A stretch of DNA of 64,000 bases from an uncultured Pseudomonadales bacterium (GTDB lineage Bacteria > Patescibacteriota > Microgenomatia > UBA1400 > MFAQ01): positions 6,380 to 70,379 of the forward strand of contig CAYHNG010000004.1 of assembly GCA_964357975.1 (NCBI GenBank), written 5' to 3'. Positions 11,251 to 62,714 of this stretch are shown here, one piece after another. Below the pieces are notes generated by a model, which saw only the letters and a program-made list of their open reading frames with translations, was not told the origin of the DNA and searched no databases. Positions within the stretch are counted from its first letter, which is position 1; each line of letters starts with the position of its first letter. A program made the translations under genes and the position numbers.

Positions 11251-11553
11251 GCAGAGCTTTTTTGGGAATCCAACGATTTTCCCTCTCTTCACCACTACCC
11301 CTTCCGCTCGAAGTAATCTAATTTTCTGTTGAATTTCTTCACCAGAGGTTTTTCCCATAAATCCCCCAATACTTCCATCGCTTCGAACTACTCTATGGCA
11401 AGGAACTTCGGGAGCGTACGGGTTATGTTTTAAAGCCTGACCAACGGCTCTGTAAGCTTTGGTGCCTAATTTTTCACCCAACACCTTATACGTCGTCACT
11501 TGTCCTTTGGGTACACTTTTTAGAATTTTGTAAACTTCATCAGCGAAACTCAT
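11236..11553 (-). CDS. minimal methylated-DNA-protein-cysteine methyltransferase DNA-binding domain protein (MGMT/Ogt C-terminal domain only)
   Basis: PCHRVV active-site motif with the Cys retained. 105 aa, so the N-terminal domain is absent. Confidence 0.6.
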   Translation of the reverse strand: MSFADEVYKILKSVPKGQVTTYKVLGEKLGTKAYRAVGQALKHNPYAPEVPCHRVVRSDGSIGGFMGKTSGEEIQQKIRLLRAEGVVVKRGKIVGFPKKLCLFVE

Positions 11554-47197: not shown

Positions 47198-47818
47198 TTA
47201 GGCGTATTTCCTTATCACACCCACACATTTTCCCTGAACTTTTACGTTTATGGCAAAAATTGGAGACATGGAAGAGTTTGCAGGCTCAAGACGTACTCGG
47301 GTTCTTTCCCGAAAAAACCTCTTTAGAGTGGCGAGTCCGTTTTCCAATAGTGCCACAACAATATCGCCATCTTTTACAGCCCCTATTTCACACTCTTCAA
47401 TCAGTACAAAGTCATGGTCAAATATTCCTTCCTCAATCATCGAATCCCCTTTCACTTGAAGCACAAAGGCCCTTTTCTTACCAGAAACCATTGACGAAGA
47501 AACCCTCATGGTGGCATTTGGATCAGTTAGTGGCTCAATCGGTCGTCCTGCTGCAATATAGCCCAAAATAGGGAGTTCTAAAGACGCCAATTCCACACTC
47601 GGCCTATCTACCACTTCAATCCCACGAATAGCTCCATCAAACTTTCGAATGATCCCTTTCTTTTCCAGGGCCTGTAAATGTTCGTGGATAGTAGCTAAAG
47701 AGGAGACGCCAATTGCATTTGCAATTTCCGAAAGAGTAGGGGAGTAGCCGTTCTTTTGAATAAACTGAGAAATAAATTCAACAATCTGTCTTTGTCTTTT
47801 GTATAGTGTTACGGCCAT
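47198..47818 (-). CDS. lexA: LexA repressor
   Basis: N-terminal wHTH (LSEIANAIGVSSLATIHEHLQALEKKGII). Cleavage-site region LGYIAAGRP. S24 peptidase VKGDSM...GDIVVA...KRF. Start at the internal ATG (MAVTLYKRQ). Confidence 0.85.
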   Translation of the reverse strand: MAVTLYKRQRQIVEFISQFIQKNGYSPTLSEIANAIGVSSLATIHEHLQALEKKGIIRKFDGAIRGIEVVDRPSVELASLELPILGYIAAGRPIEPLTDPNATMRVSSSMVSGKKRAFVLQVKGDSMIEEGIFDHDFVLIEECEIGAVKDGDIVVALLENGLATLKRFFRERTRVRLEPANSSMSPIFAINVKVQGKCVGVIRKYA

Positions 47819-47927
47819 AGATTCATTATTACCAAACAATACCCAAATGTCAACTAATAAAATCCAAACCATCAACAGCTAGTTTATTGTTCCTCAGCTT
47901 CGGCTGGGGCATTTCTATGCCTGCGAT

Positions 47928-47956
47928 TTGACAACTCAGCCTCAATATGGTATTAT
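47928..47956 (+). promoter_or_regulatory. near-consensus sigma70 promoter TTGACA-N17-TATTAT driving the zinc-ribbon gene divergent from lexA
   Basis: TTGACA at 47928..47933 and TATTAT at 47951..47956. An AGGAGA RBS lies before the ATG at 48004. Confidence 0.45.
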
Positions 47957-48003
47957 ATAGGACGTACCTTCAATTCAAGCTGCATCCGATAGGAGATAAT
48001 CTT

Positions 48004-48342
48004 ATGAAAAAGTGCCCCAATTGTTCGTATTCGAACCCTGATGTCAAGTTCTGCGCCGAGTGTGGCACCGATCTTCGAACTGTTGAAGTCAAGAAAACCT
48101 GCTACATAGCCATGAAAAGTGAGGACGGTGTATATACAGTCCGTGGAGAGCGCTATCCCACCCGTGAGGCATTTGAGGATGCTCACCTTAACATGATGCA
48201 CAACCTTGATGGCATCTTCGTCATCCACGCCTTTGTGGATGATCTGGTTACCGGTCAACCATTTACTCCGATCGGTATAGACAAGATCGTCAACTTCGGC
48301 ACCTTCCGCCGCTACGATCCATTCCCAATCACGCTCTCCTGA
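48004..48342 (+). CDS. zinc-ribbon protein (CPNC...CAEC)
   Basis: MKKCPNCSYSNPDVKFCAECG is a Cys4 ribbon. The rest is unrecognised. Located between lexA and uvrB. Confidence 0.4.
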   Translation: MKKCPNCSYSNPDVKFCAECGTDLRTVEVKKTCYIAMKSEDGVYTVRGERYPTREAFEDAHLNMMHNLDGIFVIHAFVDDLVTGQPFTPIGIDKIVNFGTFRRYDPFPITLS

Positions 48343-48374
48343 AAGGGAGAGCTTTTTATGCGAAAATAGACCCA

Positions 48375-50423
48375 ATGGACTTTCAACTAGAATCAACCTA
48401 CCGCCCAACTGGAGACCAGCCTAATGCCATTGAAAAATTGGCTATTTCTATCGACCAACAAAACCCGCATCAAACTTTAGTAGGGGTTACTGGTAGTGGC
48501 AAGACGTTTACCATAGCGAACGTCATCCAGAAAACTCAGCTTCCCACCCTAGTCATGTGTCACAACAAAACGCTTGCTTCTCAGCTATACCAAGAGTTTC
48601 GGGACTTTTTCCCTCACAACGCCGTTTCCTATTTTGTTTCTTACTACGATTACTACCAGCCGGAGGCCTACATTCCCCAAACCGACACATATATCGAGAA
48701 GGAAGCCGACATCAATCCAGAAATCGACAAATTTCGCCTGACTACCACGGCTAATCTTTTATCTCGCCCGGACAGTATCGTGGTCGCCTCGGTTTCCTGT
48801 ATTTATAATATCGGCTCTCCGCTCGATCAGGAGCAAAACCTTTTGCCCTTAGCCCGTGGACAAGTAATCTCCCGGGATACTGTTCTTATGCGTCTTTCGG
48901 ACCTTCAATATACCAGGACAGCTTCCGAGCTCACGCGAGGCATGTACCGGGCAGTTGGTAGTACCGTACAACTATATCCTTCCTACAAAGATATTATTAT
49001 TTCCATGAGTTTTGAGGGGAATACGCTCGCCAATATCGAGATTCTTGATCCCTATAACTACACCCCTATCATCGACGAAGACTTGGAAAATACCGGCTTT
49101 CTGACTATTCATCCGGCTAAACTCTTTATCACTAACCCCAAAACTCAGGGGGACGCCATAGCCATAATTAGAAAAGACTTGGAAACCCAAGTAAAAGCTT
49201 TTAAAGATGCCGGTAAGATTATCGAAGCCCATCGGATAGAGCAAAAGGTCAATTACGATCTCTCCATGCTCGAAGAGGTTGGCTATGTCAGTGGAATCGA
49301 AAATTATTCTCGATACTTTGATGGTCGTGTAGCTGGATCTGCCCCATACTCCTTGTTTGAATATTTCCATTACAACGCCAAGAAATTTAACAAACCTGGC
49401 TTTCTGACGGTCATTGACGAGTCTCATATTTCTCTACCTCAAATCAGAGGTATGTATAACGGTGATCAAGCGCGCAAAGAAAATCTTATCAATTTTGGTT
49501 TTCGTCTCCCCAGCGCCAAAGACAACCGCCCGCTAACTTATACCGAGTGGCAGTCCAGAACTCCTATCAAACTTTACTGTTCCGCTACGCCCACCGAACA
49601 CGAACTCTCGCTTTCGCGTGGTAGTGTAATTCCCACAGTGGCTGAACAGCTTATTCGACCTACCGGTTTACTCGACCCGGAGATACGGGTTTTTCCTACT
49701 AAAGGTCAAATAGATCACCTCACTCAAGAGGTTATCAAAAGAAAAGAAAAGGGTGAAAGGACTTTAATTCTTACAATGACCAAAAGAATGGCCGAAGATC
49801 TTGCGGACCATTTAAAAGTAAAATACAACCTAAAAGTAGAATATCTTCACTCGGATATCCATACCATGGACCGGGCTGACATTTTGGACAAACTTCGCTT
49901 GGGAGACTTCGATTGCCTTGTCGGTATCAATCTCTTAAGAGAAGGGCTTGATTTACCGGAAGTGTCACTAGTAGCCATTCTCGATGCCGACAAAGAGGGT
50001 TTCTTGCGTACTTCAACGGCACTCATCCAAACCATGGGTCGAGCCGCCAGACACGTTAACGGAGAAGTCTATTTGTACGCCGATCGCATCTCAGACTCTA
50101 TGAAAATCGCTATGAGCGAAACTCTTCGCCGCAGGAAGATTCAAATGGATTACAACTCTGCGCACGGAATCACCCCTCAGGGCATTATTAAGCCCATTAG
50201 AGATCGTCTCTTTAAGCAAGAAAGCCAAAGCCCGGCACCGCGTATCAAAGAGCTGGCCGAACATGGCTGGACCGAAATTGACGATATAAATCCCGAAGCC
50301 CTTACACCTCAGAAAAAAAAGATTCTCGTTGTCAAGCTCAAAAAAATGATGAACCAAGCCGCCAACTCCTGGAACTTCGAGCTCGCCGCCCGCTACCGCG
50401 ACACCATCAAGAAACTACAATAA
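48375..50423 (+). CDS. uvrB: excinuclease ABC subunit B
   Basis: GVTGSGKTFTIANVI, DESHISLPQIRGMYNGDQARK, and the C-terminal UVR domain (ELAARYRDTIKKLQ). Confidence 0.95.
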   Translation: MDFQLESTYRPTGDQPNAIEKLAISIDQQNPHQTLVGVTGSGKTFTIANVIQKTQLPTLVMCHNKTLASQLYQEFRDFFPHNAVSYFVSYYDYYQPEAYIPQTDTYIEKEADINPEIDKFRLTTTANLLSRPDSIVVASVSCIYNIGSPLDQEQNLLPLARGQVISRDTVLMRLSDLQYTRTASELTRGMYRAVGSTVQLYPSYKDIIISMSFEGNTLANIEILDPYNYTPIIDEDLENTGFLTIHPAKLFITNPKTQGDAIAIIRKDLETQVKAFKDAGKIIEAHRIEQKVNYDLSMLEEVGYVSGIENYSRYFDGRVAGSAPYSLFEYFHYNAKKFNKPGFLTVIDESHISLPQIRGMYNGDQARKENLINFGFRLPSAKDNRPLTYTEWQSRTPIKLYCSATPTEHELSLSRGSVIPTVAEQLIRPTGLLDPEIRVFPTKGQIDHLTQEVIKRKEKGERTLILTMTKRMAEDLADHLKVKYNLKVEYLHSDIHTMDRADILDKLRLGDFDCLVGINLLREGLDLPEVSLVAILDADKEGFLRTSTALIQTMGRAARHVNGEVYLYADRISDSMKIAMSETLRRRKIQMDYNSAHGITPQGIIKPIRDRLFKQESQSPAPRIKELAEHGWTEIDDINPEALTPQKKKILVVKLKKMMNQAANSWNFELAARYRDTIKKLQ

Positions 50424-50425
50424 CA

Positions 50426-51067
50426 CTATTTTAGTTTCTTTCCTTTGAACACTGTTCCCCCTACTGCATCTTTAGACCGACTTGTGTCAATAACTCTTCC
50501 ATCTAGATCTGATAAATCATCTTGAACAATTCCATTCTCTTTAAGAAACCGTCTGATTATTCTTCTTGCCTCTTCCCCATACTGTCGACTTTCGTTCGTT
50601 CGGTTATCAAGCAGTATGTATATTATGGTTCCTTGACGGATAAATTTTTCCAACTGGCCAAGTAAATCATCCTCGACAATATTTCTAGGGTTTGGAGCGA
50701 TCATCATGATTAGATCTGCCTTAAACGAGGGAATGACTTCCACCTCACCAGGAACAAGTACTCTTTCTGCACCCATTTCGACTCGACGATCACCTCTTGC
50801 GACCTTCTGGTCAATAAAATATCCAAGTGCGACGTCCGCCCCAATCCACACATCGCCCGATCTTTGATCAACTGATAATCCTGGTGGTCTAAAACCTGGA
50901 CCCACATCCAGCACCCTGAATTTACTTCTTTCAATAATTTCCATAATTTGTGCCTTGCTCGCATCAAAAGTTTTTAGTCTAAAATCCAAAACTCTAGCAG
51001 AGAGCAGAGTGTCTGTTACTCTCTCTTTACCTAAATTGAATTCAGCAACAGCTGGGGATCCGATCAT
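50426..51067 (-). CDS. hypothetical protein, possible SAM-dependent methyltransferase fold
   Basis: FRVLDVGPGF resembles MTase motif I. Otherwise unrecognised. Confidence 0.3.
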   Translation of the reverse strand: MIGSPAVAEFNLGKERVTDTLLSARVLDFRLKTFDASKAQIMEIIERSKFRVLDVGPGFRPPGLSVDQRSGDVWIGADVALGYFIDQKVARGDRRVEMGAERVLVPGEVEVIPSFKADLIMMIAPNPRNIVEDDLLGQLEKFIRQGTIIYILLDNRTNESRQYGEEARRIIRRFLKENGIVQDDLSDLDGRVIDTSRSKDAVGGTVFKGKKLK

Positions 51068-51150
51068 ATCTTCAGATTATAGCGAATATAATAACCACAT
51101 GGACGAAACAAAATTAGTCAGCAATACATGGATCGAAAAAGGGGTGGCCA

Positions 51151-51650
51151 TGAAATTTACTTGGTACCCAGGAGAGAATCTGGAACAGTTTCAGCCATTT
51201 AATCAAGTTTATGGTGTCGTCTTTAATGCAGACGGTCAAATGCTCATTCAAAGAAGGGGGTTAAGACCTTGGTGCCTGGCCGGAGGGACCGTTGAAGTAG
51301 GGGAGACCGCCGAAGAAACTCTCAGGCGCGAACTAATTGAAGAAGCCGATGTTACCGTCAAGAATCCCATTTTGCTCGGCGGGCAAAGAGTGCAATTTCC
51401 CGGCGGGCATAATCCTAATCCCGGCAAACGTGGTGGTGGTGATGATTTCTATCAACTCCGCTATTACTGCGAAGTTGACGAGGTGTTACCTCAAACACCC
51501 GATCCTGATCACGACATCATTAACGATCGCCTCTTTGTTCCCCAAACAGAGATAAATAATTATCTTAACTGGGGCATTACCGGACAAGTTATCTTCGACC
51601 AAGCCATCGCCCTCTGGCTTTCACTTCATCCAGTGCCGCTTGGTGGATAA
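51151..51650 (+). CDS. Nudix hydrolase
   Basis: Nudix box region GGTVEVGETAEETLRRELIEEADV. ATG at 51151 has an AAAGGGG RBS. An alternative start is at 51099. Confidence 0.55.
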
Positions 51651-52176
51651 ACCCGTAGACCTTACCATAATCTCCCCAAGAGAACTTTCCACCCGGGTGT
51701 TCAAAGAAATTATCACTGGCTAATCCAAAATAATTTGCTACGAGCTGACGATATTCGGCTTCGTCCATCCTGACCACATCGGAAACGTCATCTCCCGAAA
51801 TCAATTCCTTCATTCCAAGCGGGAGGTAATAAACAAAAGCCGTATGAGAAAATTTTTCTTCTTTAAAAGCACCCTCAACATTTACCCGAATCAACGGGAC
51901 AAATTTCTCTGCCGGTTCCTTAATACCAAGTTCTTCTTCAGTTTCTCTGATAGCTGCAGAAAGGACATCTTCACCGTCGTTAATTCCGCCACCAATCATT
52001 CTCACAATCCCTTCCGGGTAAAATCCCTTCTTGTCTCCCAAGATAAATTTTCCGGAACCATCTTTTCCCAGAATCAAGACAGTTCTATCCCGATATCGTA
52101 AATTTTCAAAAGGTAAATGAGATAGTTCAACCTTACAATCAATTTCTTTAAACATAATCAAATTATAATATTTCAA
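51589..52176 (-). CDS. Nudix hydrolase
   Basis: GGGINDGEDVLSAAIRETEEELGI matches the Nudix box. 3' end overlaps the convergent Nudix gene. Confidence 0.55.
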   Translation of the reverse strand: MKYYNLIMFKEIDCKVELSHLPFENLRYRDRTVLILGKDGSGKFILGDKKGFYPEGIVRMIGGGINDGEDVLSAAIRETEEELGIKEPAEKFVPLIRVNVEGAFKEEKFSHTAFVYYLPLGMKELISGDDVSDVVRMDEAEYRQLVANYFGLASDNFFEHPGGKFSWGDYGKVYGFIHQAALDEVKARGRWLGRR

Positions 52177-52178
52177 AA

Positions 52179-52748
52179 CTATTTACCGACATCCAACAAT
52201 TTCGTTAATTTCTGATAGTCGGTAATTCCGTTCTCCAAAACTGCTTTATAAATATCCGTACTGGAAACTCGATTCTTGTCGTCTCCTTCCATTTCTCTTA
52301 TTTGCTTAAGTCTCAATATTGCCAGTTTACTTTCAGGCGTCAGACTTTTTGCGTATCGTAAATCTCTCTCTGTTTTATCCTGTGGATATTTATCGACAAA
52401 CCAAATTTCTGTCTCCCATTTCACTCCATTTATTTCCGAGATCAAAACCACAATGAAACCCTTGAGTCGGCCCATTCTTGGAAATTTCACAAAATCCCCA
52501 TACTGATATTTTTGAAACTGCCTCTCTTCAATCAGCATTTTCATGACATTTACGGAGGCATGTCTTGGATCGCCGGTTTCCACTACGATATCGATATCCG
52601 GGCCGTACATCAAATTCAGACTCAAACTACCTATGATCGAGCATTTTCCATATTTTGAAAGCAGGGGAATCAATCCGGAGTCAGCCAGTATCCTATTGGC
52701 AATATCTTTTTGGCTTTCAGAATAATTCAGCAATTCAGCGTCGTTCAT
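52179..52748 (-). CDS. Pol-beta-superfamily nucleotidyltransferase-like protein
   Basis: GSLSLNLMYGPDIDIVVET resembles the G[SG]-x9-13-D.D NTase motif. Confidence 0.4.
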   Translation of the reverse strand: MNDAELLNYSESQKDIANRILADSGLIPLLSKYGKCSIIGSLSLNLMYGPDIDIVVETGDPRHASVNVMKMLIEERQFQKYQYGDFVKFPRMGRLKGFIVVLISEINGVKWETEIWFVDKYPQDKTERDLRYAKSLTPESKLAILRLKQIREMEGDDKNRVSSTDIYKAVLENGITDYQKLTKLLDVGK

Positions 52749-52928
52749 TGTCTCATTTTACTCCAGTGCCAAGCCTACCGCGACCGAAGTAAAAGGGTCA
52801 AACTCGGTTACTTTCTCTTTTCCAGACATTTCAACGATCATTGATCCAAACCCGTCTGCATGATAAATTTGATCCTGACTAATATGCTTAGAAAGTCATC
52901 GTTCAGTGGTAAGACAGGGAACTTACAT

Positions 52929-53510
52929 TTAGATGTTACCGTAGCCCTTGTCACTTTTGAGTGCTCTGATGATTAGGTCCCGTATCAATTCAGATTTTGA
53001 TACACCCAACTCGTTTGATTTCCAGTCTAGGTACCCGTTTTCCAGGTTTTGAAGCACCAGGTTAAATCTTACTTTCTCAGAAAATTTTTTAGCCAGGGTG
53101 TTCTTTAAAATTTTGGCAACATCTTCCTTGGTATTGTAATAATTTACCGAAATTCGACTATCATCAACAAAATTAATCAACTTATTCTTCAAAATCTCCT
53201 TTGCGGACTCTTTGTAGAATATAAAAACAGGCTTGTTTTTTTGTAGAGCCAATGAAATCTGAAACCCAGTACTTAGGCCACCATTGGTCCCCTCAACAAC
53301 CACAATATCTGATCTAAGCAGATCTGAAGAGACAGATTTGTTGATCTTAGAGAAATCTAGAGTCGTCAGCCCCCTATATGCCTCTTTAGCCTCACCAATC
53401 CAGTCCCTTGTCAGGACGTTTCCAGTCTCAATAATGGCATCCTTTACAGCCATAATGTCTGGCATCCTAGCCTCAAAATTGTCTGTGGAGGTGGCAAAAA
53501 ATACTTTCAT
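52929..53510 (-). CDS. fusion of a nucleoside 2-deoxyribosyltransferase-like Rossmann domain with a C-terminal ribbon-helix-helix DNA-binding domain
   Basis: N-terminal MKVFFATS...DIVVVEGTNGGLSTGFQISLALQKNKPVFIFY (NDT-like). C-terminal RFNLVLQNLENGYLDWKSNELGVSKSELIRDLIIRAL has the RHH pattern (beta-strand + ..SRSELIREAI..). Confidence 0.45.
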   Translation of the reverse strand: MKVFFATSTDNFEARMPDIMAVKDAIIETGNVLTRDWIGEAKEAYRGLTTLDFSKINKSVSSDLLRSDIVVVEGTNGGLSTGFQISLALQKNKPVFIFYKESAKEILKNKLINFVDDSRISVNYYNTKEDVAKILKNTLAKKFSEKVRFNLVLQNLENGYLDWKSNELGVSKSELIRDLIIRALKSDKGYGNI

Positions 53511-53587
53511 CGTATTATAGAGTTGCTATTGACAAATTATAACATATAGGTTATCATGCACACGAATGCGCATATTAATTAAAGCTT

Positions 53588-54013
53588 ATGAAAATAACTA
53601 AAAGCTTTTCTTTTGCAATGGGTCATCGTTTACCCCTTCACTCGGGTAAATGTTCCAACTTTCATGGTCATAACTATGACGTGACTATTACTCTCGATTT
53701 TGAAACCGGCCAGAGCTTCATAGAAGGGGTCGGTTTTTTAATAGATTTTGGAGATATAAAAAAGTATGTTGACGAACGTTTTGATCATAAGTTCGTCATG
53801 CAGTCTTCAGATCCGTACTTGAAATCCATCGCACCGCTAGAGATACCCGGCTTGGTAGTGGTAGATTACGCCCCAACCGCCGAAAATTTGGCTACAGATA
53901 TTTCTCAAGGACTAAAACAATATATTTCAACACAAGGATTTAGTTCAAATCAGTTCAAGGTCATAGTCAAACTATGGGAAACCAGTAATTCATTTGTAAC
54001 TCAAATAGCCTAA
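53588..54013 (+). CDS. queD: 6-carboxy-5,6,7,8-tetrahydropterin synthase (QueD/PTPS family)
   Basis: FSFAMGHRLPLHSGKCSNFHGHNYDVTITL is the QueD Cys/His zinc motif. Confidence 0.8.
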   Translation: MKITKSFSFAMGHRLPLHSGKCSNFHGHNYDVTITLDFETGQSFIEGVGFLIDFGDIKKYVDERFDHKFVMQSSDPYLKSIAPLEIPGLVVVDYAPTAENLATDISQGLKQYISTQGFSSNQFKVIVKLWETSNSFVTQIA

Positions 54014-54015
54014 AA

Positions 54016-54825
54016 ATGAAAATTCTTAAGGCGAGCGATATAACCACAAAATACTCCCCGACAAAAGAAGATCTTTCCAATCTAATAAAAAAGGACAACA
54101 CCTTTAAACTCTCTGGTGATCGCATCTTTCACACAATTCAAGGGGAAGGGGCAACACTGGGTAAACCAGCAACTTTTGTCAGACTACACTTCTGTAACTT
54201 ATCATGTTCCTGGTGTGACACCTGGTATACCTGGCACCGGGATACCGAACAGTATTACAAAGAACCTTTTGATATGAGCGTCTCCGAACTTCACCGGGGG
54301 ATTAGAAATGCACAAGCCGCAAAAGGTGTCTCTGAAGAAAATCACGTCTATCGAGTGATTTTTACCGGGGGTGAACCAATGCTTCAGCAAAATGAAATTG
54401 CCCAATTCTTAATCGAGAACCCGGTATACATCTGCGAAATAGAAACCAATGGAACCATAGCCCCAAATGAATTTCTGCAGAAGCTTTGCAAAGAGGACAG
54501 AATACGGTTCAACTGTTCCCCTAAATTGGCGAATTCAGGAAATAATTCAAAAATTGCCTTTAACCAAAACGTTCTGAAAATACTGGCAAGTTTCCCAACA
54601 ACGATATTTAAATTTGTCTGTAATAAACCCAATGACATCGATGAAATTCTGGAAAAATTCAACTTTTTACCTAGAGGGCAAATTGTCATTATGCCAGAGG
54701 GGGTTACAAAAGAAGAAAATGCCGGCGCTTACGAAAGGATTATTAACAAAATAATCGAGCTCAGTTTAACTACTTACCCAAGATTACAAAATATCTGCTT
54801 TGACGGGTCAAAGCGGGGTGTTTAA
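54016..54825 (+). CDS. queE: 7-carboxy-7-deazaguanine synthase (radical SAM)
   Basis: IQGEGATLGKPATFVRLHFCNLSCSWCDTWYTW has the CxxxCxxC cluster motif in QueE context. Confidence 0.8.
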   Translation: MKILKASDITTKYSPTKEDLSNLIKKDNTFKLSGDRIFHTIQGEGATLGKPATFVRLHFCNLSCSWCDTWYTWHRDTEQYYKEPFDMSVSELHRGIRNAQAAKGVSEENHVYRVIFTGGEPMLQQNEIAQFLIENPVYICEIETNGTIAPNEFLQKLCKEDRIRFNCSPKLANSGNNSKIAFNQNVLKILASFPTTIFKFVCNKPNDIDEILEKFNFLPRGQIVIMPEGVTKEENAGAYERIINKIIELSLTTYPRLQNICFDGSKRGV

Positions 54826-54830
54826 AAACA

Positions 54831-55379
54831 ATGACACAATCAAAAATTGAAGATGCGTTTAAAAAGGTCGTCTCGGAATTAAATCCAAATTGGGAAAGTG
54901 ATCCCGATATGAGGGAAACGCCTCACCGACTTGGTCGCTTCTACATGCATTTTTTCCGCAATGAGGATCCAAATGCTCACATGGGGAAACGTTTTCCAAC
55001 AAAAAACAGGAATTTCGTTATTGTCAAAAACATTGAATGTTTCGGTATGTGTCCTCATCATCTAACTCCTGTAATTTACAAAATAAATATTGGTTACCTT
55101 CCCGAAAAATGGGCACTTGGTTTAAGTAAGCTTGCTCGTGTCGCAGTTGCCTGTGCCAGTAGTCCCAAATTGCAAGAAAATCTTACCTCCGATATTGTTG
55201 ATTGTGTCTACAAGCAATTAAAACCAAACGGTGTTATTGCAACAGTAGAAGGTGTTCATGGTTGTATGAGATGTCGCGGCGTTGAACAAGATACATCGGC
55301 CGTAACGGTTGATTACCGAGGTAAAAAAATGAATGATCTTAAGATAAAAAACGAGTTTTATACTTTACTAAAAATATAA
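54831..55379 (+). CDS. folE: GTP cyclohydrolase I
   Basis: FGMCPHHLTPVIYKINIGYLP compares with the FolE CEHHLVPF motif. 182 aa. Confidence 0.85.
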   Translation: MTQSKIEDAFKKVVSELNPNWESDPDMRETPHRLGRFYMHFFRNEDPNAHMGKRFPTKNRNFVIVKNIECFGMCPHHLTPVIYKINIGYLPEKWALGLSKLARVAVACASSPKLQENLTSDIVDCVYKQLKPNGVIATVEGVHGCMRCRGVEQDTSAVTVDYRGKKMNDLKIKNEFYTLLKI

Positions 55380-55864
55380 TGACTCCGATAATTCATAACT
55401 TTAGTTGGCAAGACATCTCCATCCTCTGTCAAAATATATCTAGAAAAATCGAGGCTGACAACTTTCAACCAGACATAATAGTTACTCCTCAAAGAGGAGG
55501 TTTTGTGCCAACGGCTATATTATCCCACCTATTAAGGTGCAGAGAGGTTATTGTCGTCGACATAAAAAGAACGTTGTCGGATGAAATTCATGCTGCCAAG
55601 ACCCCCCCGACCTTGACCAGTGATATCGACACGGAAAGACTTAAGGATAAAAAGATTCTTGTTATCGACGACATTATAGGGAGTGGAGAAACACTCCATT
55701 TTCTATTAAATATATTGGGAAAATGCAAGCCCAAAGCCATTAAGACCTCAATATTGGTCCAGAATGATGAGAATTTTGAAAAATCATTATTAAGAAACAA
55801 TTTGAAGCCTGATTACCTGGGCAAGAACGTTAGGGGTTGGGTAATATTTCCATGGGAGAAATAA
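55379..55864 (+). CDS. Gpt-like (xanthine/guanine-type) phosphoribosyltransferase, candidate 7-deazapurine-base PRTase
   Basis: PRPP loop KILVIDDIIGSGETL. N-terminal ISWQDI...IIVTPQRGGFVPTAILSHLL and C-terminal GWVIFPWEK parallel E. coli Gpt (VTWDML...IIAVSRGGLVPGALLAREL ... TWIEQPWDM). Start overlaps the folE stop. Confidence 0.65.
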   Translation: MTPIIHNFSWQDISILCQNISRKIEADNFQPDIIVTPQRGGFVPTAILSHLLRCREVIVVDIKRTLSDEIHAAKTPPTLTSDIDTERLKDKKILVIDDIIGSGETLHFLLNILGKCKPKAIKTSILVQNDENFEKSLLRNNLKPDYLGKNVRGWVIFPWEK

Positions 55865-56412
55865 ATCTAACCTACAAGACAAAGCCCTTTGTCTTGACCG
55901 GCGGACCGGGAGTCGGGAAGACTATGACGGCAATAGGGCTTGAACTAAAAGGATATTTTGTAATTCCTGAGGTGGCTGAATCATACATAAAGCTGCAACA
56001 ACATCTTGGAGATAAATATCCGTGGGAGGACAAGAATTTTGAAGCCATCGTCCTGAGGTATCAGCTTCAAAAAGAATCCGTATTGAAGGAATTAAGGAAT
56101 GTCGGTCCGGTTTTTATTGATCGCGGTAATTTAGATGCACTTGCATATTATCAATATTATGATCGACCCATCAGTCCTTTAATGAAACAAGTGATTGCTT
56201 GCCACGAAAAAACCAAAATCTATAACAAGATATTCTTGCTAGAACAACTAGGAGGTGAAAAGACTACAGAAATACGAAAAGAAAATAGTTTTGAGTCTAA
56301 GTCTCTCGAATTGCTACAGGAAAAAAACTACCGAGATTTTGGATATGAAGTTATCAGAATACCAGCCCTGCCGTTAGCGGAACGGGTTAAATTAGTTATT
56401 TCGAAAATATAA
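55852..56412 (+). CDS. P-loop nucleoside/nucleotide kinase-like protein
   Basis: Walker A LTGGPGVGKTM and DRGNLDALAY (DR-type motif of NMP/dN kinases). Overlaps the PRTase 3' end. Confidence 0.5.
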   Translation: MGEINLTYKTKPFVLTGGPGVGKTMTAIGLELKGYFVIPEVAESYIKLQQHLGDKYPWEDKNFEAIVLRYQLQKESVLKELRNVGPVFIDRGNLDALAYYQYYDRPISPLMKQVIACHEKTKIYNKIFLLEQLGGEKTTEIRKENSFESKSLELLQEKNYRDFGYEVIRIPALPLAERVKLVISKI

Positions 56413-56419
56413 ACATACA

Positions 56420-57712
56420 GTGAACAATTACAAAAAATTGATCTTTATTGGGGCTGGTCCAGCCTCGTTATTGGCGGGAAACATTCTTTGGAAAAACGGA
56501 TTCCATGATTTCTTAATATTGGAAAAAGGATTGGGTGTACATGAAAGAAATAAATATGACAAAAACGAAAATATCTGTTCCAGTATCAACGGAATTGGCG
56601 GTGCTGGTTTATTCTCGGACGGTAAGTTGAATTTCTCTCCTCAAATCGGCGGTCTACCGCTTAAGATCATGTCTAGTGACAGATATCAAAAATGGTCAGA
56701 AGAGCTAAAAAACCTAATTCCTGCGAAAATTGTCGAAACCGACTTTTCCGGTATTGAAAACTTCAATAAATCGAACAAAGACATAAATTTTTTAGCTATC
56801 GAACAGCGCCATGTCGGTACCGATTATTTACCTGCTATCGTAGATAGGTTAATCGATGGTTTCGAGAAAAATATCCTTACCGACGTAGACGTAACAGATG
56901 TGACAAAAAAAGATTTTGGCTTTGAAATAATTCTAGCTGACGGAAGAACTTTGGAATGTGAAGAACTAGTGGTAGCTACCGGACAAAGAGGTGCGGCTTT
57001 TGCTAAAAAATTGGCTGTAAAAATGGGTGTAAATGTCTCCTCTGTTGTCGCCGATATTGGTGTCCGTCTAGAAACAGAAAAAAATATGTTTAAGGCCTTA
57101 ATCGACTTACAATATGATCCAAAGATTTATTTTAAATTTGGAAATAAGCCTACGGTTAGAACATTCTGTACTAATCCCGGAGGAGACGTTATCGTAGAAA
57201 ATAAAGGAGATTACGTCACAATAAATGGCCATGCAAGTATTACGGATCAGACAGACTTTACAAATACCGCACTCATGTGTCGCATTGAAAATCTCGAAAA
57301 TCCAAAAGAATACACGGAAAAACTCTGTCGTCGCATTTCTAGTGTCACCGGAAACAAGATAGGAGTTCAGGATATTTCTGAACTAATTGACACTAAACCC
57401 TGCAGTTTCAAGATTCGCATACCCTATGTGAAAATGGATATCCGTGAATATTACGATTCCTTAGCATATGAACCAATAGTTGAAACTTTAAAAAAACTCA
57501 ATAAAATTTTGGATAAAAAACTAGAGGGATACATCTATTTCCCCGAAGTAAAACTCTATAACGATCACATAGATATCAAAAAGGATAGTTTAGAAGCTCA
57601 GGGAACAAAAGGACTTTACTTTTTAGGTGATTGTTGCGGTGTTATCCACGGACTTACAAACGCATGCTTAGCCGGTCAATCGTTTGCTCATACTTATTTG
57701 GAAAATATATGA
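56420..57712 (+). CDS. FAD-dependent oxidoreductase (COG2509-like)
   Basis: N-terminal dinucleotide fold LIFIGAGPASLLAGNIL. C-terminal GLYFLGDCCGVIHGLTNACLAGQ. Confidence 0.55.
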   Translation: MNNYKKLIFIGAGPASLLAGNILWKNGFHDFLILEKGLGVHERNKYDKNENICSSINGIGGAGLFSDGKLNFSPQIGGLPLKIMSSDRYQKWSEELKNLIPAKIVETDFSGIENFNKSNKDINFLAIEQRHVGTDYLPAIVDRLIDGFEKNILTDVDVTDVTKKDFGFEIILADGRTLECEELVVATGQRGAAFAKKLAVKMGVNVSSVVADIGVRLETEKNMFKALIDLQYDPKIYFKFGNKPTVRTFCTNPGGDVIVENKGDYVTINGHASITDQTDFTNTALMCRIENLENPKEYTEKLCRRISSVTGNKIGVQDISELIDTKPCSFKIRIPYVKMDIREYYDSLAYEPIVETLKKLNKILDKKLEGYIYFPEVKLYNDHIDIKKDSLEAQGTKGLYFLGDCCGVIHGLTNACLAGQSFAHTYLENI

Positions 57713-58533
57713 AAATCAACTCTGAAAAATCGGAAATGACTTTCAATTTAGAAAGATTGGCAGAAACTTCAAATTCTCTCGTACTTGTCACAGCCGCCAA
57801 TATGTTAATTGAGAATTCAGCTGTTACGATTCAGCCTTCAAAAGAAGTAACTGAAAAACTTCTTTCTCTTTTAGATGCACTCGAGGAAATGCCTGCAATA
57901 AACGCCTTTGCAATTGAAGGGGTCAGAGGTTCTGGTAAAACGACTCAGATCGGTCTTCTCGAAAACGGTGATTTTGCTGTCTCAGGAAGCCGGTTAATAA
58001 CTCCACTATATACAGATTTTATTCAGCCTCAGAAAAAAGACGTGTACATGACGATGTTTGGAGGAGAGGGAAGACCCACCGGAAGCATCATTGACTCACT
58101 AATAATCGCCGCTTTTCACGCTGATCGGTTAACAAGAGTTCAGGCTATCAGTTATAACAAGCCCTTATTGATTGATAGACATTGGCTTTCATTTTATGCC
58201 ATTGAGAGGGCTAAAATGATCCAATCCGGGTTAGATGCTGAAATAGCTGAAAACATTGTCGCCAAAATTGTAACGACTTGGAACCAGGTTAATCTTACCT
58301 TAGTACTTCATAATGTTCTCGTAGCTGTCGGTGAAAATAGAATCATACAACGTGGAGAGGCGGTTCGAAGTGAAAACGAAATACAGATTGAGACTCTAGT
58401 ATCAGAGACGATTGAACTCTTTTGTGGCGGAAAATCCCTCATACCCAAATTTAACAATACCACCAAATTTTTTGATGCCCAAAAATCTGCCGAGGTTTTG
58501 CACGAAGAAATTAAACAGTACTTTATAAAATGA
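57709..58533 (+). CDS. thymidylate-kinase-family (d)NMP kinase with N-terminal extension
   Basis: FAIEGVRGSGKTTQIGLL (Tmk P-loop IEG.DGSGKTTQ) and LLIDRHWLSFYAIE (Tmk DR..S..YQ motif). ATGA overlap with the preceding stop. Confidence 0.55.
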   Translation: MKINSEKSEMTFNLERLAETSNSLVLVTAANMLIENSAVTIQPSKEVTEKLLSLLDALEEMPAINAFAIEGVRGSGKTTQIGLLENGDFAVSGSRLITPLYTDFIQPQKKDVYMTMFGGEGRPTGSIIDSLIIAAFHADRLTRVQAISYNKPLLIDRHWLSFYAIERAKMIQSGLDAEIAENIVAKIVTTWNQVNLTLVLHNVLVAVGENRIIQRGEAVRSENEIQIETLVSETIELFCGGKSLIPKFNNTTKFFDAQKSAEVLHEEIKQYFIK

Positions 58534-59177
58534 AAAAAATAGAACTTGAAATTGACGAACTAAAAAAACGTTGGAACGAACGAGCATCAAGTTGGGATAA
58601 TGACTTAAAAGATCCGGAGCATTATTCAAATTTTGAACATTCTTATGAAAGAACCGATAGATTCACTTTAAAATATTTAAATCAGATATTTTCAATTAAT
58701 AAAGCAAATAATTCTCTCGATTTAGGATGTGGTACGGGAGAAAGTACTGTGAAACTAATACCTTATGCCCACAATATTTTTGGGGTAGATATCTCCGGAA
58801 ATATGATCCTAAATGCTATTTCAAAAAAATATCCCATCGAATTTACCTGTCAAAACGCAATGTCATTAAGCTTCCCAGATCAAATGTTTGATCTGGTAAT
58901 ATCTCGCGGCATCATGATCTCCCATGTACCTCTTGGGGGACAGGAAGATGTTGTTAGGGAAGTTGCCAGAATCACCCATAAGGGATCTGTAATCATCCTT
59001 GACTTTCTTCACGATATCGAAACAAAGAAGAAATATACAAAGTATTCTTCACCAAAAGCGCATTATAATGAAGAATCGATTATTTTACTTCTTAAGAGTG
59101 TGAATATAACGGGTAAATATTATTATGGTGGCACAAAAACCGAACGAGTAAATCGTATAGCAATTATTCGAGATTAA
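58530..59177 (+). CDS. class I SAM-dependent methyltransferase
   Basis: Motif I LDLGCGTGEST, and post-I LVISRGIMISHVP. Start overlaps the preceding stop. Confidence 0.65.
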   Translation: MKKIELEIDELKKRWNERASSWDNDLKDPEHYSNFEHSYERTDRFTLKYLNQIFSINKANNSLDLGCGTGESTVKLIPYAHNIFGVDISGNMILNAISKKYPIEFTCQNAMSLSFPDQMFDLVISRGIMISHVPLGGQEDVVREVARITHKGSVIILDFLHDIETKKKYTKYSSPKAHYNEESIILLLKSVNITGKYYYGGTKTERVNRIAIIRD

Positions 59178-59178
59178 A

Positions 59179-59736
59179 ATGAAACAAATTCACTTCGCTA
59201 CAACTAATGAATATAAAATCAAATTTGCTAACAATCTTTTAAGAACTCATGACTGGGAATGTGTACCAGGAAAAGTAAATTTAATTGAGCCGCAATCAAT
59301 GACACAAGAAGAAATATCCCAATACAAAGTGTTACAGGCATATGAGCAATTAAAAGTTCCTGTAATTACAATGGATTCAGGAATTTTTATTAGTGCTCTA
59401 AAAGGATTCCCAGGCATATACACTGCTGATTTTTTCAAATCTCTGAATAATGACCAGATTCTTCAGCTAATGGAAAAAGAATCTGACCGCAGCGCTTATA
59501 TCCAGCAAACATTATCGATAAATAACGGCGAGGAAATAAAATCTTTCACTAGTAAATCAGAAGGAGTCATTGTTCAATCTACGGAGGCAGGCGAAGGTTA
59601 CGCTTTCGACGCTTTTTTTAAACCAAATATTACAGGTAAGATAATGGCTAAGATGACAGAAGGTGAAAAGAGTTTAATCTGGGGTGAAGCGTGGAACAAA
59701 TTGGGTGATTTCCTAAACAGCTCATCATTACAATAG
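59179..59736 (+). CDS. Ham1/ITPase-family NTP pyrophosphatase (second paralog)
   Basis: IHFATTNEYKIKFA and VITMDSGIFISALKGFPGIYTADF match RdgB motifs. It starts 1 nt after the methyltransferase stop. Confidence 0.6.
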   Translation: MKQIHFATTNEYKIKFANNLLRTHDWECVPGKVNLIEPQSMTQEEISQYKVLQAYEQLKVPVITMDSGIFISALKGFPGIYTADFFKSLNNDQILQLMEKESDRSAYIQQTLSINNGEEIKSFTSKSEGVIVQSTEAGEGYAFDAFFKPNITGKIMAKMTEGEKSLIWGEAWNKLGDFLNSSSLQ

Positions 59737-59789
59737 TTTATTTAAACTCTTCGGGTATTTTAGGGTGATTTGGCGTATAATAAACAGTC

Positions 59790-62714
59790 ATGTCCGGCAC
59801 ATCACCTTCCACTCATTTGATCATCAAGGGAGCTCGTCAGCATAACCTCAAGAACATCAATCTGACACTACCCAAGAACAAACTCGTCGTTTTCACCGGT
59901 GTTTCGGGTAGCGGAAAGTCCAGCATGGCCCACGATACCATCTACGCTGAAGGTCAACGACGCTATGTCGAGTCTCTCTCCTCCTATGCGCGACAATTTT
60001 TAGGGGTCATGGACAAGCCCGATGTCGATCAGATTGAAGGACTTTCCCCGGCCATCCTCATCGACCAAAAGCAGGGGAGCCACAATCCTCGCAGTACCGT
60101 CGGCACCGTCACCGAGATCTATGACTATCTCCGTCTTCTCTTTGCCCGTATTGGGCACCCTCACTGCCCCCAATGCGGTCGTGAAATCATGCCTCAGGAT
60201 ATTAACCAAATCTACAAAGCGGTCATCGATCTGGCCGTCAGTCACCCCAGCTATCAAAAGCAAAAGGGTGTGCGTTTACTAATCCTGGCTCCCATTGTCA
60301 AAAATCAGAAAGGTGAATTCAAAGAGCTTTTTCCGGGCTTGGTCAAGCAGGGGATAGCCGAAGTCAGAGTCGACCGCAAAATCCTCTCCACTCAATCCAC
60401 CCTTTCTCTCTTCAAAAATAATCGACACAATGTCGAGGCCGTTATCGACAAGATCATCATTGGCCAGGTCGGTGGTAGTCCGGAGTATGAAAAACAAAGA
60501 TTGGTCGATTCTTTAGAACAAGCTCTCAAAATTTCCGATGGCGAAGTCTATGTCAGCATTGTAATCGATCCTTCGCTTTCCTTTCCCACCGATCCTGAAG
60601 ATATGGAAGATCATTTGTTCTCTCAGAAGCTCGCTTGTCCGATCGACAACATATCTATACCCGAAATAGAACCACGTTATTTTTCTTTCAATGCTCCCGA
60701 GGGCGCCTGTCCGGAATGCACCGGACTAGGAACCAAAATGGTCTTGGACACTGACTCGGTTGTATCTCCTTCATTAAGTTTTCTTGAGGGTGCCATTATT
60801 CCTCTGGCTTCTCAATTCGAAAGCAGAACCTGGTTAGCTAAATTAATTCTTGAAGCCATGGAATCAGTGGGCTTTCCTGGAAACAAACCTCTCTTTGATA
60901 TGACGGAAGAACAAAAGAATTTTCTCTTTAAAGGCACCGCCGAAAAAAACTTTTCCATCAAGGGCATTAACCGGCACGGCAAGCACGTCCTTCGAAGGAT
61001 GACCTTTGGTGGACTTTCCAAAGAGTTCGAGAGACGCTATGAAGAGTCTTCTTCGGAATCTTTTAAGGAAGAAATCTCCAAGTATTTAATCCGCAAAACC
61101 TGCCCGGTTTGTTTTGGAACCCGTCTCAAGCCGGAAGTCTTGGCCGTTCACGTAGACAACCAATCAATTAGTGAGATTACCTCTTGGTCAACCGCCAAAT
61201 CTTTCACTTTTTTCCAAGATTTATTCAAAAAACTTACAGCCACCGAAAAGCAAATCAGTGAGCCAATTGTCAAGGAAATCGGGGATCGGCTAAGTTTCCT
61301 AATGTCCGTTGGGCTTGACTATATTACTTTGGCTCGGGAATCCGGCACTCTTTCCGGTGGTGAGCTTCAAAGAATTCGTCTGGCTAGCCAAATTGGTTCT
61401 CGACTAACCGGCATTCTCTATGTTTTAGACGAGCCCACCATTGGCTTACACCAGCGCGACAACGCTAAACTTATCAAAACTCTTCAGGACCTCGTATCGC
61501 TCGGAAATTCCTTAGTTGTTGTTGAGCACGATCAACAAACCATGGAGTGTGCTGATCACATCGTCGAATTTGGACCAAAAGCGGGTTATTTGGGTGGAAA
61601 GATTACTTTTGAAGGTACGGTGGAAGAGATGAAAACTTCTGACTGTCTTACTGGACAATATCTTTCCGGCAAGAAAGCCGTTGTCGCCACAATACCGAAA
61701 GAACCCACAGAAAGTCCGGCTTCCATTCGGCTTACCGGCTGCACTCACCACAATTTAAAAAACATTGAGGTTGATTTTCCCCTGAACAAATTTGTTGCGG
61801 TTACCGGCGTTTCCGGATCAGGAAAATCATCACTGGTGGTAGACACTTTGTATGAAGCTCTGTCTCAAAAACTTAACCCTTTACACCATAAAGAAGATAT
61901 TCAATTTGGCACTATCACTATTCCGGATATTGTCAGAAGGGTTTCTTTGATAGACCAAAGTCCCATCGGCAAAACTCCCAGAAGTAATCCGGCTACCTAT
62001 ACCAAAGTCTTCGACTATATTAGACAGTTATTTGCCAACACCCAAGAAGCCAGATATCGCGGATACGGACCTGGACGTTTTAGTTTTAATGTCAAAGGCG
62101 GCCGCTGCGAAACCTGCGAGGGAGATGGTCAGATTAAAATTGAGATGCAGTTTCTAGGTGACATCTATATTACGTGCGAAACCTGCAAAGGCACCCGTTT
62201 TAATGATCCTACTTTGGAAGTTGAATACAAAGGTAAAAATATTGCTCAGGTTCTTGGTATGACTATGGACGAAGCCAGTGACTTTTTTAGAAACGTCCCC
62301 GCGATCAACAAAAAAATTGAAACTATTAAAAAAGTTGGACTTGGATATATCAAGTTGGGACAAAGCGCCCCTACACTTTCAGGGGGAGAGGCCCAGCGTG
62401 TCAAGTTGGCCACCGAACTCGCCAAAACCGGTAGTGGTCACACGGTTTATATCCTCGACGAACCCACCACCGGACTTCACTTTGAAGACCTTAGTAAGCT
62501 CGTTCAGACCCTCGTTGACTTGGTCAATCAAAATAATACGGTTATTGTTATCGAACATAATCTAGACGTTATCAAGAATGCCGACTATATTATTGACATT
62601 GGGCCTGAGGGAGGAGATTTGGGAGGTGAACTGATTGCCAAAGGTAAACCATCTCATGTTTCCGCAAAATACGACACCCCAACGGCTCAAGAGTTAAAAA
62701 AGCTAGTCTTCTAA
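59790..62714 (+). CDS. uvrA: excinuclease ABC subunit A
   Basis: Two ABC modules ([12 protein letters not shown] ; [12 protein letters not shown]), LSGGE signatures, and zinc-finger cysteines (CPQCGREI ; CPECTGLG ; [14 protein letters not shown]). Confidence 0.95.

Follow-up and report, generated by a model that had tools for sequence, protein, structure and literature searches.

The window, by which is meant the whole stretch of 64,000 nucleotides analysed here (contig CAYHNG010000004.1 of assembly GCA_964357975.1, positions 6,380 to 70,379), carries on its minus strand a gene for a protein in which a domain resembling the nucleotide N-glycosidase DNPH1/Rcl is joined to one of the ribbon-helix-helix (RHH) type. 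This fusion gene lies divergent from a nine-gene operon that begins with queD. All five open reading frames (ORFs) that the initial annotation had described upstream of the operon were located where it had placed them, as was the 77-bp divergent region (53511-53587) with its TTGACA and the palindrome ATGCGCAT. The features of the locus are as follows.

50426-51067, minus strand: ORF of 213 aa, unassigned function
50955-51650, plus strand: Nudix hydrolase ORF, likely gene 51099-51650 (183 aa from M49); Pfam NUDIX, source gene call
51589-52176, minus strand: Nudix hydrolase; Pfam NUDIX; 188 aa from 52155 in the source gene call
52179-52748, minus strand: small Pol-beta-fold nucleotidyltransferase (NTase), 189 aa; conserved residues, AF2 fold, synteny
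52782-59749, no strand: low-GC island of 6,968 bp; synteny against the Candidatus Collierbacteria locus L038, and GC content
52929-53510, minus strand: DNPH1/Rcl-like plus RHH fusion gene, 193 aa; predicted nucleotide-responsive repressor
53529-53557, plus strand: queD promoter, TTGACA-17-TATCAT, 11 of 12 consensus matches
53536-53544, minus strand: candidate fusion-gene promoter, extended -10 TGtTATAAT, as read from the letters
53556-53573, no strand: candidate operator ATGCACAC-GA-ATGCGCAT, two ATRCRCA/TGYGYAT heptads 10 bp apart
53588-59736, plus strand: nine-gene queD...Ham1 operon (Pfam, NCBIfam, PHROG), in the order queD, queE, folE, phosphoribosyltransferase (PRTase), AAA_28 kinase-like protein, FAD protein, P-loop/Tmk-like protein, S-adenosylmethionine (SAM) methyltransferase, Ham1

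Domains and distribution of the fusion protein

The architecture suggested by the initial annotation for 52929-53510, a nucleoside 2-deoxyribosyltransferase (NDT)-like domain followed by an RHH domain, is borne out by profiles, by the AF2 fold and by the strand/helix signature; residues 1-143 form the DNPH1/Rcl-like domain and residues ~146-186 the ribbon-helix-helix. The predicted structure (pLDDT 81) has DNPH1/Rcl and then MilB as its closest folds, the top 35 Foldseek matches being DNPH1/Rcl (E 1e-5, TM up to 0.83 on the target). The single sequence gives a weak match of the N-terminal domain to DNPH1/Rcl (E 3e-3), and a profile of 126 family sequences matches Rcl/DNPH1 with an E value of 1e-19 over positions 3-142. 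PF05014 is matched by 60 of these 126 members, the window protein itself having no Pfam match for its N-terminal domain.

Alignment of the Rcl motif GVGYE(93)LG with svGyQiala of the family profile places Gln84 of the window protein at the position of the nucleophile Glu93, where 79 of the 126 family members have Gln, 14 Glu, 11 Leu and 8 Ile. The position of Asp69 is occupied by Val60 (V, T or I across the family), and that of Tyr13 by Phe4. With all three positions changed, the window protein is a homologue of Rcl of the non-catalytic kind, and this loss of catalytic residues makes the domain look like a nucleotide-binding pseudo-enzyme.

The C-terminal part displays the β-α-α arrangement of the Arc/MetJ/CopG class, as evident from the polar alternation on the strand K146-V-R148-F-N150-L-V-L and from the Gly-x-Ser turn (G169-V170-S171) ahead of the second helix, the helices spanning residues 155-168 and 172-186. 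The strand position R148 is R or K in 126 of 126 members and N150 is kept in 115 of 126, with F149 also noted between them. A comparison by hhalign returned CopG with a probability of 81% (E 1.2e-5) and Arc weakly, with a probability of 13%, though the FN[LF] strand motif is similar. Against PDB, the profile of this domain found TTHA0139 (E 5.5e-4), with AvtR, VapB26 and a regulator of the CopG family next, all three at non-significant scores. RHH_1 or RHH_3 is matched at E<0.01 by only 13 of the 126 members.

A word-indexed search recovered 10 relatives of the same length as the fusion protein, and a profile search of 1.84 billion representatives gave 2,028 matches at E<=1e-3 and 131 at E<=1e-30, counted as 50%-identity clusters. 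Nearly all of the best 150 relatives are 180-215 aa long and matched over the whole profile, which indicates that the two-domain architecture constitutes a stable and abundant family. The homologues come mostly from metagenomes of Patescibacteria, the ultra-small bacteria of the candidate phyla radiation (CPR), and none of the nine family clusters inspected has a meaningful name. No description of an NDT/DNPH1-RHH regulator was found in the searchable literature, the coverage of which is incomplete. A protein identical in sequence to the window protein is encoded on a Hainich groundwater metagenome contig (well H41, 0.1-µm fraction).

The genomic surroundings of the family were followed in 6 genome loci, 25 metagenome loci (scanned with a 10-sequence alignment of the fusion family as query) and several contigs with fusion homologues. 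In the commonest setting, seen in at least 13 loci, the fusion gene is followed by a gene for a ~415-aa thymidylate-synthase-like/SAM-methyltransferase fusion and then by one for a CYTH or MazG-like protein; the methyltransferase half of the former is homologous to the methyltransferase at 58530-59177 of the island (E ~1e-20 to 1e-28). Eight loci have a GTP cyclohydrolase II-like gene divergent upstream, three of them together with a cytidylate kinase. Further neighbours are ribonucleotide reductase, Nudix, DHH, HD 5'-nucleotidase, a Tmk fusion, CTP synthase and Ppx/GppA, and family genes are often the first among, or divergent from, such nucleotide-metabolism genes; some neighbourhoods consist of plain housekeeping genes. 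The family is thus not specific to queD and occurs in varied nucleotide-metabolism neighbourhoods, a distribution suggesting a nucleotide-responsive local regulator that may have been recruited by different modules of nucleotide metabolism or modification.

One arrangement, the DNPH1-like/RHH gene with the ThyA-like/methyltransferase and CYTH/MazG genes, recurs in CPR loci L003, L017-L023, L025, L027 and L029-L031 (e.g. L019, 3932-8404); in several of these loci the opposite strand holds a GTP cyclohydrolase II-like gene, a small ORF and a cytidylate kinase gene. The cluster has the look of a pathway, so far uncharacterised, to a modified pyrimidine nucleotide.

Promoters and the candidate operator

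The queD promoter, with TTGACA at 53529-53534 and TATCAT at 53552-53557, is the best promoter-like site in 50300-53800. Lacking a -35 match, the candidate promoter of the fusion gene was not among the sites given by the promoter scan. The palindrome ATGCGCAT at 53566-53573 forms one half of the bipartite candidate operator. In 77 bp, a lone palindrome of 8 bp could well arise by chance, and its significance comes from comparative evidence only.

The candidate operator starts within the -10 hexamer of the strong queD promoter and covers the expected start site; on the opposite strand it coincides with the -35 region of the fusion gene's extended -10 promoter. Nine copies of the relaxed heptad ATRCRCA/TGYGYAT are found in the 64 kb, and the only pair within 25 bp is that at 53556-53573. 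Read on the sense strand of the fusion gene, the site is ATGCGCA-TTCG-TGTGCAT at -63/-52, which can be compared with the upstream regions (130 bp) of the family, where a typical element, GTGTGTAT-CAT-ATACACAC, lies ~63-73 bp ahead of the ATG and where extra copies of ATACACA/TGTGTAT often extend across the -35 and the spacer.

Of 25 non-redundant upstream regions, 20 contain this heptad, as compared to 1.3% of background 130-bp windows, and 38 hits were counted in 3,196 bp of upstream sequence as against 2 in the 18,827 bp of 99 other intergenic regions from the same loci. It is found at L001, L002, L004, L010, L011 and L014, the neighbouring genes of which are mutually unrelated; the heptad therefore travels with the fusion gene, which is the behaviour expected of an autoregulatory operator. 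Two held-out loci also have it, and one of them (L047) reads ATACACA-AATG-TGTGTAT, with the ATACACA-N4-TGTGTAT layout of the window. The site closest to that of the window, ATGCGCAC-AT-ATGCGCAT, was observed at L015/L016. The homologue of L015 (3098-4266) adjoins a split tyrosine-recombinase (phage integrase) gene, which hints that such regulators travel on mobile islands.

Other repeats are found upstream of the fusion homologues at L005, L035/L036 and L006 (RHH strand RFNFFIS), which are without the TGTGTAT heptad; the inverted repeat is TGTCATG-AAA-CATGACA at L006 and CAAGTGC...GCACTTG at L005. This suggests that the putative operator co-varies with the residues of the RHH strand in this minor RFNFF clade.

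Downstream of the fusion gene, neither a terminator nor a consensus promoter was detected in the 180-bp gap that separates it from the NTase gene, so that read-through from the fusion gene into the NTase and minus-strand Nudix genes is possible. The Rfam scan of the window gave two tRNAs only, and no riboswitch near queD.

The island, its operon and the flanking genes

The window was compared by blastn and tblastn with the Ca. Collierbacteria loci L038 and L039. In L038-L040, three Collierbacteria loci (including GCA_003531665.1) with UvrA 93% and UvrB 94% identical to those of the window, the gene order is uvrB, other small genes, Nudix, a 110-aa ORF, Nudix and NTase, divergent from uvrA, and neither the fusion gene nor the queD operon is found at this uvrB...uvrA locus. 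The more distant L041 and L043 also have NTase-Nudix-Nudix beside uvrB without the operon, and in L043 uvrA adjoins the NTase gene. Nucleotide homology to L038 ends at 52781 and restarts at 59750, L038 having ~55 bp where the window has 6,968 bp. This segment (52782-59749) contains exactly the fusion gene and the queD...Ham1 genes, and the two appear, on that ground, to have been acquired together.

The GC content is 0.31-0.42 within the island and 0.44-0.53 in the flanks. A local minimum of 0.35-0.37 is located at 52001-52400, inside the Nudix/NTase genes of the conserved core; low GC alone is therefore no marker of the island, and its boundary was set by synteny. On the right, the uvrA promoter region (TATAAT at ~59776) matches L038 right up to the junction; on the left, only 33 bp of the ancestral upstream region of the NTase gene remain after the insertion. 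By inspection only, neither a target-site duplication nor a recombinase gene was seen at the island ends. The island is hosted in an SOS/repair neighbourhood, with lexA (47198-47875), a zinc-ribbon ORF and uvrB on one side (47198-50423) and uvrA on the other (59790-62714). A phage or defence origin was considered and rejected, there being no relatives of the fusion protein in viral contigs or GenBank phages and no PADLOC match for the fusion, NTase and 213-aa proteins; the island PRTase has one weak phage match.

The start of queD is placed at 53588, since from there the protein has the canonical N-terminus of QueD, MKITKSFSFAMGHRL, and aligns with the Pfam model from residue 2 onwards, so that the intergenic region measures 77 bp rather than 107 bp; the source gene call uses a later ATG, 10 codons downstream (131 aa; L007, 9498-9893). 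No queC was found among the operon genes with Pfam, NCBIfam and PHROG. The PRTase should make 7-carboxy-7-deazaguanine (CDG) ribonucleotide, since TubE does so and FolE, QueD and QueE are present without QueC. The ORF at 57631-58533 (300 aa; 274 aa in the source call) carries the thymidylate-kinase-like P-loop GVRGSGKTTQ and has no Pfam match and a weak PHROG match to thymidylate kinase; the AAA_28 protein at 55837-56412 is the second kinase-like protein of the island. The two hint at a di- or triphosphate as product, not a free nucleoside. The island also encodes its own NTP pyrophosphatase, Ham1.

Both Nudix assignments of the initial annotation hold, with PF00293 matched at E 7e-15 by the plus-strand and at E 1e-9 by the minus-strand protein. 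The boxes read from the translations are GTVEVGETAEETLRRELIEEADV and GGINDGEDVLSAAIRETEEELGI; REx2EE is intact in both, and a Gly-to-Asp change in the plus-strand box is the sole departure from the consensus GX5EX7REUXEEXGU. The domain occupies residues 85-200 of the long plus-strand ORF (50955-51650), which together with the 183-aa source gene call indicates that the real start is probably at 51099 (M49); the apparent 5' overlap with 50426-51067 then disappears. The convergent 3' overlap of the two Nudix genes is 62 bp (51589-51650). The syntenic genes are 89% identical to the plus-strand Nudix in L038/L039 and 84% identical to the minus-strand Nudix in L038. Within the overlap, 51613-51623 of the window corresponds to the spot where L038 has ~380 bp (11141-11521) with the 110-aa ORF; as the window lacks this stretch of the Collierbacteria relatives, the minus-strand Nudix ends in a new tail of 10 residues.

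The nucleotidyltransferase proposed for 52179-52748 is likewise supported as a small Pol-beta-fold enzyme, on the strength of conserved motif residues and of the matches of a modelled fold. Single-sequence searches of Pfam, NCBIfam, PHROG and PDB gave no significant match. In an alignment of 24 homologues, G40, D51 and D53 are invariant and S41 is nearly so, which fits the motif hG[GS]x9-13Dh[DE]h. The AF2 model (pLDDT 95) has OAS1, terminal uridylyltransferases, the CCA-adding enzyme and TdT/Pol mu as best PDB folds, with modest Foldseek E values of 9e-4 to 5e-2. The NTase shares 77% identity with proteins from the CPR lineage Candidatus Collierbacteria.

For the 213-aa protein, which stays no more than the possible methyltransferase of the initial annotation, the claim that every product acts on nucleosides or nucleotides is not borne out. 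No match to it was found in Pfam, NCBIfam, PHROG or PADLOC, and a PDB search with the single sequence gave nothing significant; its best PDB profile match is a weak one, to phosphoethanolamine N-methyltransferase (E 0.29), with VLDVGPG aligned on motif I of SAM methyltransferases, and its homologues are 53-81% identical. The gene lies at a variable spot outside the island and is missing from the syntenic slot of L038/L039.

Proposed regulation, alternatives and known systems

In the reading considered probable here, the product of 52929-53510 is a nucleotide-responsive autorepressor that would also shut off the queD operon, and the two arrived together. An island of ~7 kb would have been inserted between the NTase gene and uvrA, bringing an operon for a 7-deazapurine nucleotide together with its divergent regulator gene. 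The regulator would be a transcription factor made of a catalytically dead DNPH1/Rcl-type nucleotide N-glycosidase domain and an RHH domain of the Arc/CopG type, through which it is predicted to dimerise and to bind the bipartite site at 53556-53573. Since this site covers the -10 and start of queD and the -35 of the fusion gene, the bound RHH oligomer would repress both promoters. A nucleoside 5'-monophosphate (NMP) occupying the former active-site pocket may alter the affinity for DNA, an NMP being the inferred effector because DNPH1/Rcl and MilB bind such compounds; the most economical candidate would be the 7-deazapurine NMP formed by the island PRTase, or a precursor or derivative of it.

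The small-molecule-sensing repressor foreseen by the initial annotation is strengthened by four findings: the catalytic residues are lost, the family is large and uniform in architecture, a motif of operator type is conserved upstream of its members, and a matching site lies on the -10/+1 of queD. Several observations weigh against it. The sequence ATGCACAC-GA-ATGCGCAT is unique in the 64 kb, in a test of this 18-bp pattern that is circular, the pattern having been derived from the site in the window, and the heptads of the window are a GC-rich transition variant (ATGCRCA) of the majority heptad. The loci behind the motif statistics are phylogenetically related, so that the counts overstate independence. 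In ~35 loci of the genome and metagenome scans, no other fusion homologue was found beside queD, queE, folE and the PRTase gene, and the assignment of the target therefore derives from the window locus alone. The window protein scores 15.7 bits with Pfam RHH_1 (E 0.015), below the cutoff of 20.5. It has Gly where the family usually has the Ser corresponding to the phosphate-binding Ser87 of Rcl, which makes an NMP uncertain as ligand, and the 14 members that keep Glu at the nucleophile position may be enzymes.

These 14 members also speak for the view that the fusion protein is an active nucleotide N-glycosidase of the MilB/DNPH1 type which releases or salvages a modified base, its RHH domain serving in oligomerisation or in a PutA-like bifunctionality. 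The closest folds, DNPH1 and MilB, are true glycosidases, position E73 holds E or D in 123 of the 126 members, and the placement of the fusion gene directly ahead of the thymidylate-synthase-like/methyltransferase fusion gene in the loci described above recalls the MilA/MilB pair of mildiomycin biosynthesis. This view is nevertheless unlikely. All three catalytic positions of Rcl are altered in the window protein, and the members from the ThyA-like operons also have Gln (GHQ) in the loci where the motif could be read. Even the top PDB match of the single sequence, DNPH1 8qhq, has Gln there (GYQLG), being presumably a substrate-trapping mutant, and the conserved palindromic motif upstream of the family genes points to DNA binding. 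It is far less probable that the heptads serve promoters in general or another factor, and that the fusion protein is an antitoxin- or partition-like RHH protein with no bearing on the operon. Antitoxins often have RHH domains, VapB26 is among the weak PDB matches, and one homologue lies beside an integrase gene and another near an AbiEii-like gene. The near absence of the heptad from the 99 other intergenic regions is hardly that of a general promoter element, however; no conserved toxin partner accompanies the family, the RHH domain sits C-terminal to a 143-residue domain of the ligand-binding type, and nucleotide enzymes dominate the neighbourhoods.

The flanking genes had been regarded by the initial annotation as a nucleotide-processing set flanking the operon, with the Nudix enzymes likened to TubG. 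In such a reading they would be tailoring or self-protection enzymes of a 7-deazapurine pathway, co-regulated with it. They adjoin the operon, two of them lie downstream of the fusion gene on its strand where read-through could reach them, and TubG, a Nudix hydrolase, carries out the last step of tubercidin formation, TubE being the CDG-specific PRTase (PMC6112128). This proposal, to which a low probability is given, is largely refuted by synteny. Relatives have NTase-Nudix-Nudix next to uvrB without the operon (between uvrB and uvrA in the case of L038-L040 and L043), and the boundary at 52781/52782 separates these genes from it; the Nudix and NTase genes are accordingly not linked to the operon. 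Ham1 already provides an NTP pyrophosphatase on the island, and the 213-aa protein is without assignable function. The initial annotation had let the connection depend on co-occurrence of these genes with the queD-queE-folE-PRTase block in related genomes, and in L038-L044 the flanking Nudix/NTase genes are found without that block. Judged from the comparison of loci, there are two units of different history, an older Nudix-Nudix-NTase core with the variable 213-aa gene and the inserted island. What was described at the locus stands, the sensor-repressor reading of the fusion gene is considerably strengthened by the comparison, and the inclusion of the Nudix, NTase and 213-aa genes in the operon is contradicted by it.

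The locus picture is thereby corrected to a discrete, horizontally acquired island of 7 kb consisting of operon and regulator, which gives a minimal gene set for the question of the product, and the flanking Nudix and NTase genes are not to be counted in the 7-deazapurine pathway. A wider reading of the autorepressor, held here with less confidence than its role in the window, is that DNPH1-like/RHH proteins may be an undescribed family of nucleotide-sensing transcription factors, among the more abundant in CPR, which use TGTGTAT-type heptads and serve as the switch of mobile nucleotide-modification islands. In that case, dead N-glycosidases might have been recycled as sensors of NMP or dNMP, the product of the PRTase being conceivably the effector in the window, and the recurrent operon of ThyA-like/methyltransferase, CYTH and GTP cyclohydrolase II-like genes might be one example and the 7-deazapurine operon of the window another. 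If true, this would provide a ready operator code for the prediction of regulons in organisms with almost no known regulation. Transcriptional regulation in CPR bacteria, which depend on nucleotide salvage, is almost undescribed; here a large, architecturally constant family comes with a candidate operator and a ligand class, and one 193-aa protein and 77 bp of DNA make the hypothesis testable.

DNPH1/Rcl is a 2'-deoxynucleoside 5'-phosphate N-hydrolase and a 5-hydroxymethyl-dUMP N-hydrolase. With it and with MilB (NDT superfamily, PF05014) the fusion protein shares the Rossmann-like fold and the profile homology over ~140 residues, and with DNPH1/Rcl the family also shares the G-x-G-[YHF]-x motif and, at family level, the Ser of the phosphate-binding position. 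It differs in having Gln for Glu and Phe for Tyr, in the loss of the catalytic Asp and in the added RHH domain, and it is predicted to bind the nucleotide where DNPH1/Rcl hydrolyse it.

The tubercidin/toyocamycin clusters, with TubA-C, TubE and TubG (PMC6112128), resemble the island in FolE, QueD, QueE, a purine-type PRTase and the absence of QueC, as in the route from CDG and phosphoribosyl pyrophosphate. The island is without a TubD/ToyE GMP-reductase-like gene and a UbiD decarboxylase, and adds two kinase-like P-loop proteins, an FAD protein, a methyltransferase and Ham1; its flanking Nudix genes lie outside it, and its host is a CPR bacterium rather than Streptomyces.

The ligand-controlled RHH repressors NikR, MetJ and PutA recognise DNA through the N-terminal strand of the β-α-α domain, bind short repeats in direct or inverted orientation that span promoters and are autoregulated, as is proposed for the fusion protein, and the omega repressor of pSM19035 binds heptads. 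Its heptad, (A/T)ATCAC(A/T), resembles the ATACACA of the fusion family. In contrast to these repressors, the RHH domain of the fusion protein lies C-terminal to the sensor, and the fold of the sensor is new for RHH regulators.

A similar design is known from PurR of B. subtilis, which joins a PRTase-like domain to a DNA-binding one. NrtR proteins, the Nudix-related transcriptional regulators of NAD metabolism, combine a Nudix-like effector domain with a DNA-binding domain (PMC2330246). Their design is that of the fusion protein, an enzyme-derived and typically inactivated effector domain for a nucleotide metabolite plus a DNA-binding domain, and the gene lies beside the metabolic genes it controls, as the fusion gene lies beside the queD operon. 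The two are not homologous, the effector being Nudix in NrtR and DNPH1-like in the fusion protein and the DNA-binding domain a winged helix-turn-helix as opposed to an RHH, and the phyletic range of the fusion family, mostly CPR/Patescibacteria metagenomes, differs from that of NrtR. Familiar as the proposed mechanism is, the family that would use it is large, unannotated and from a poorly understood part of the tree.

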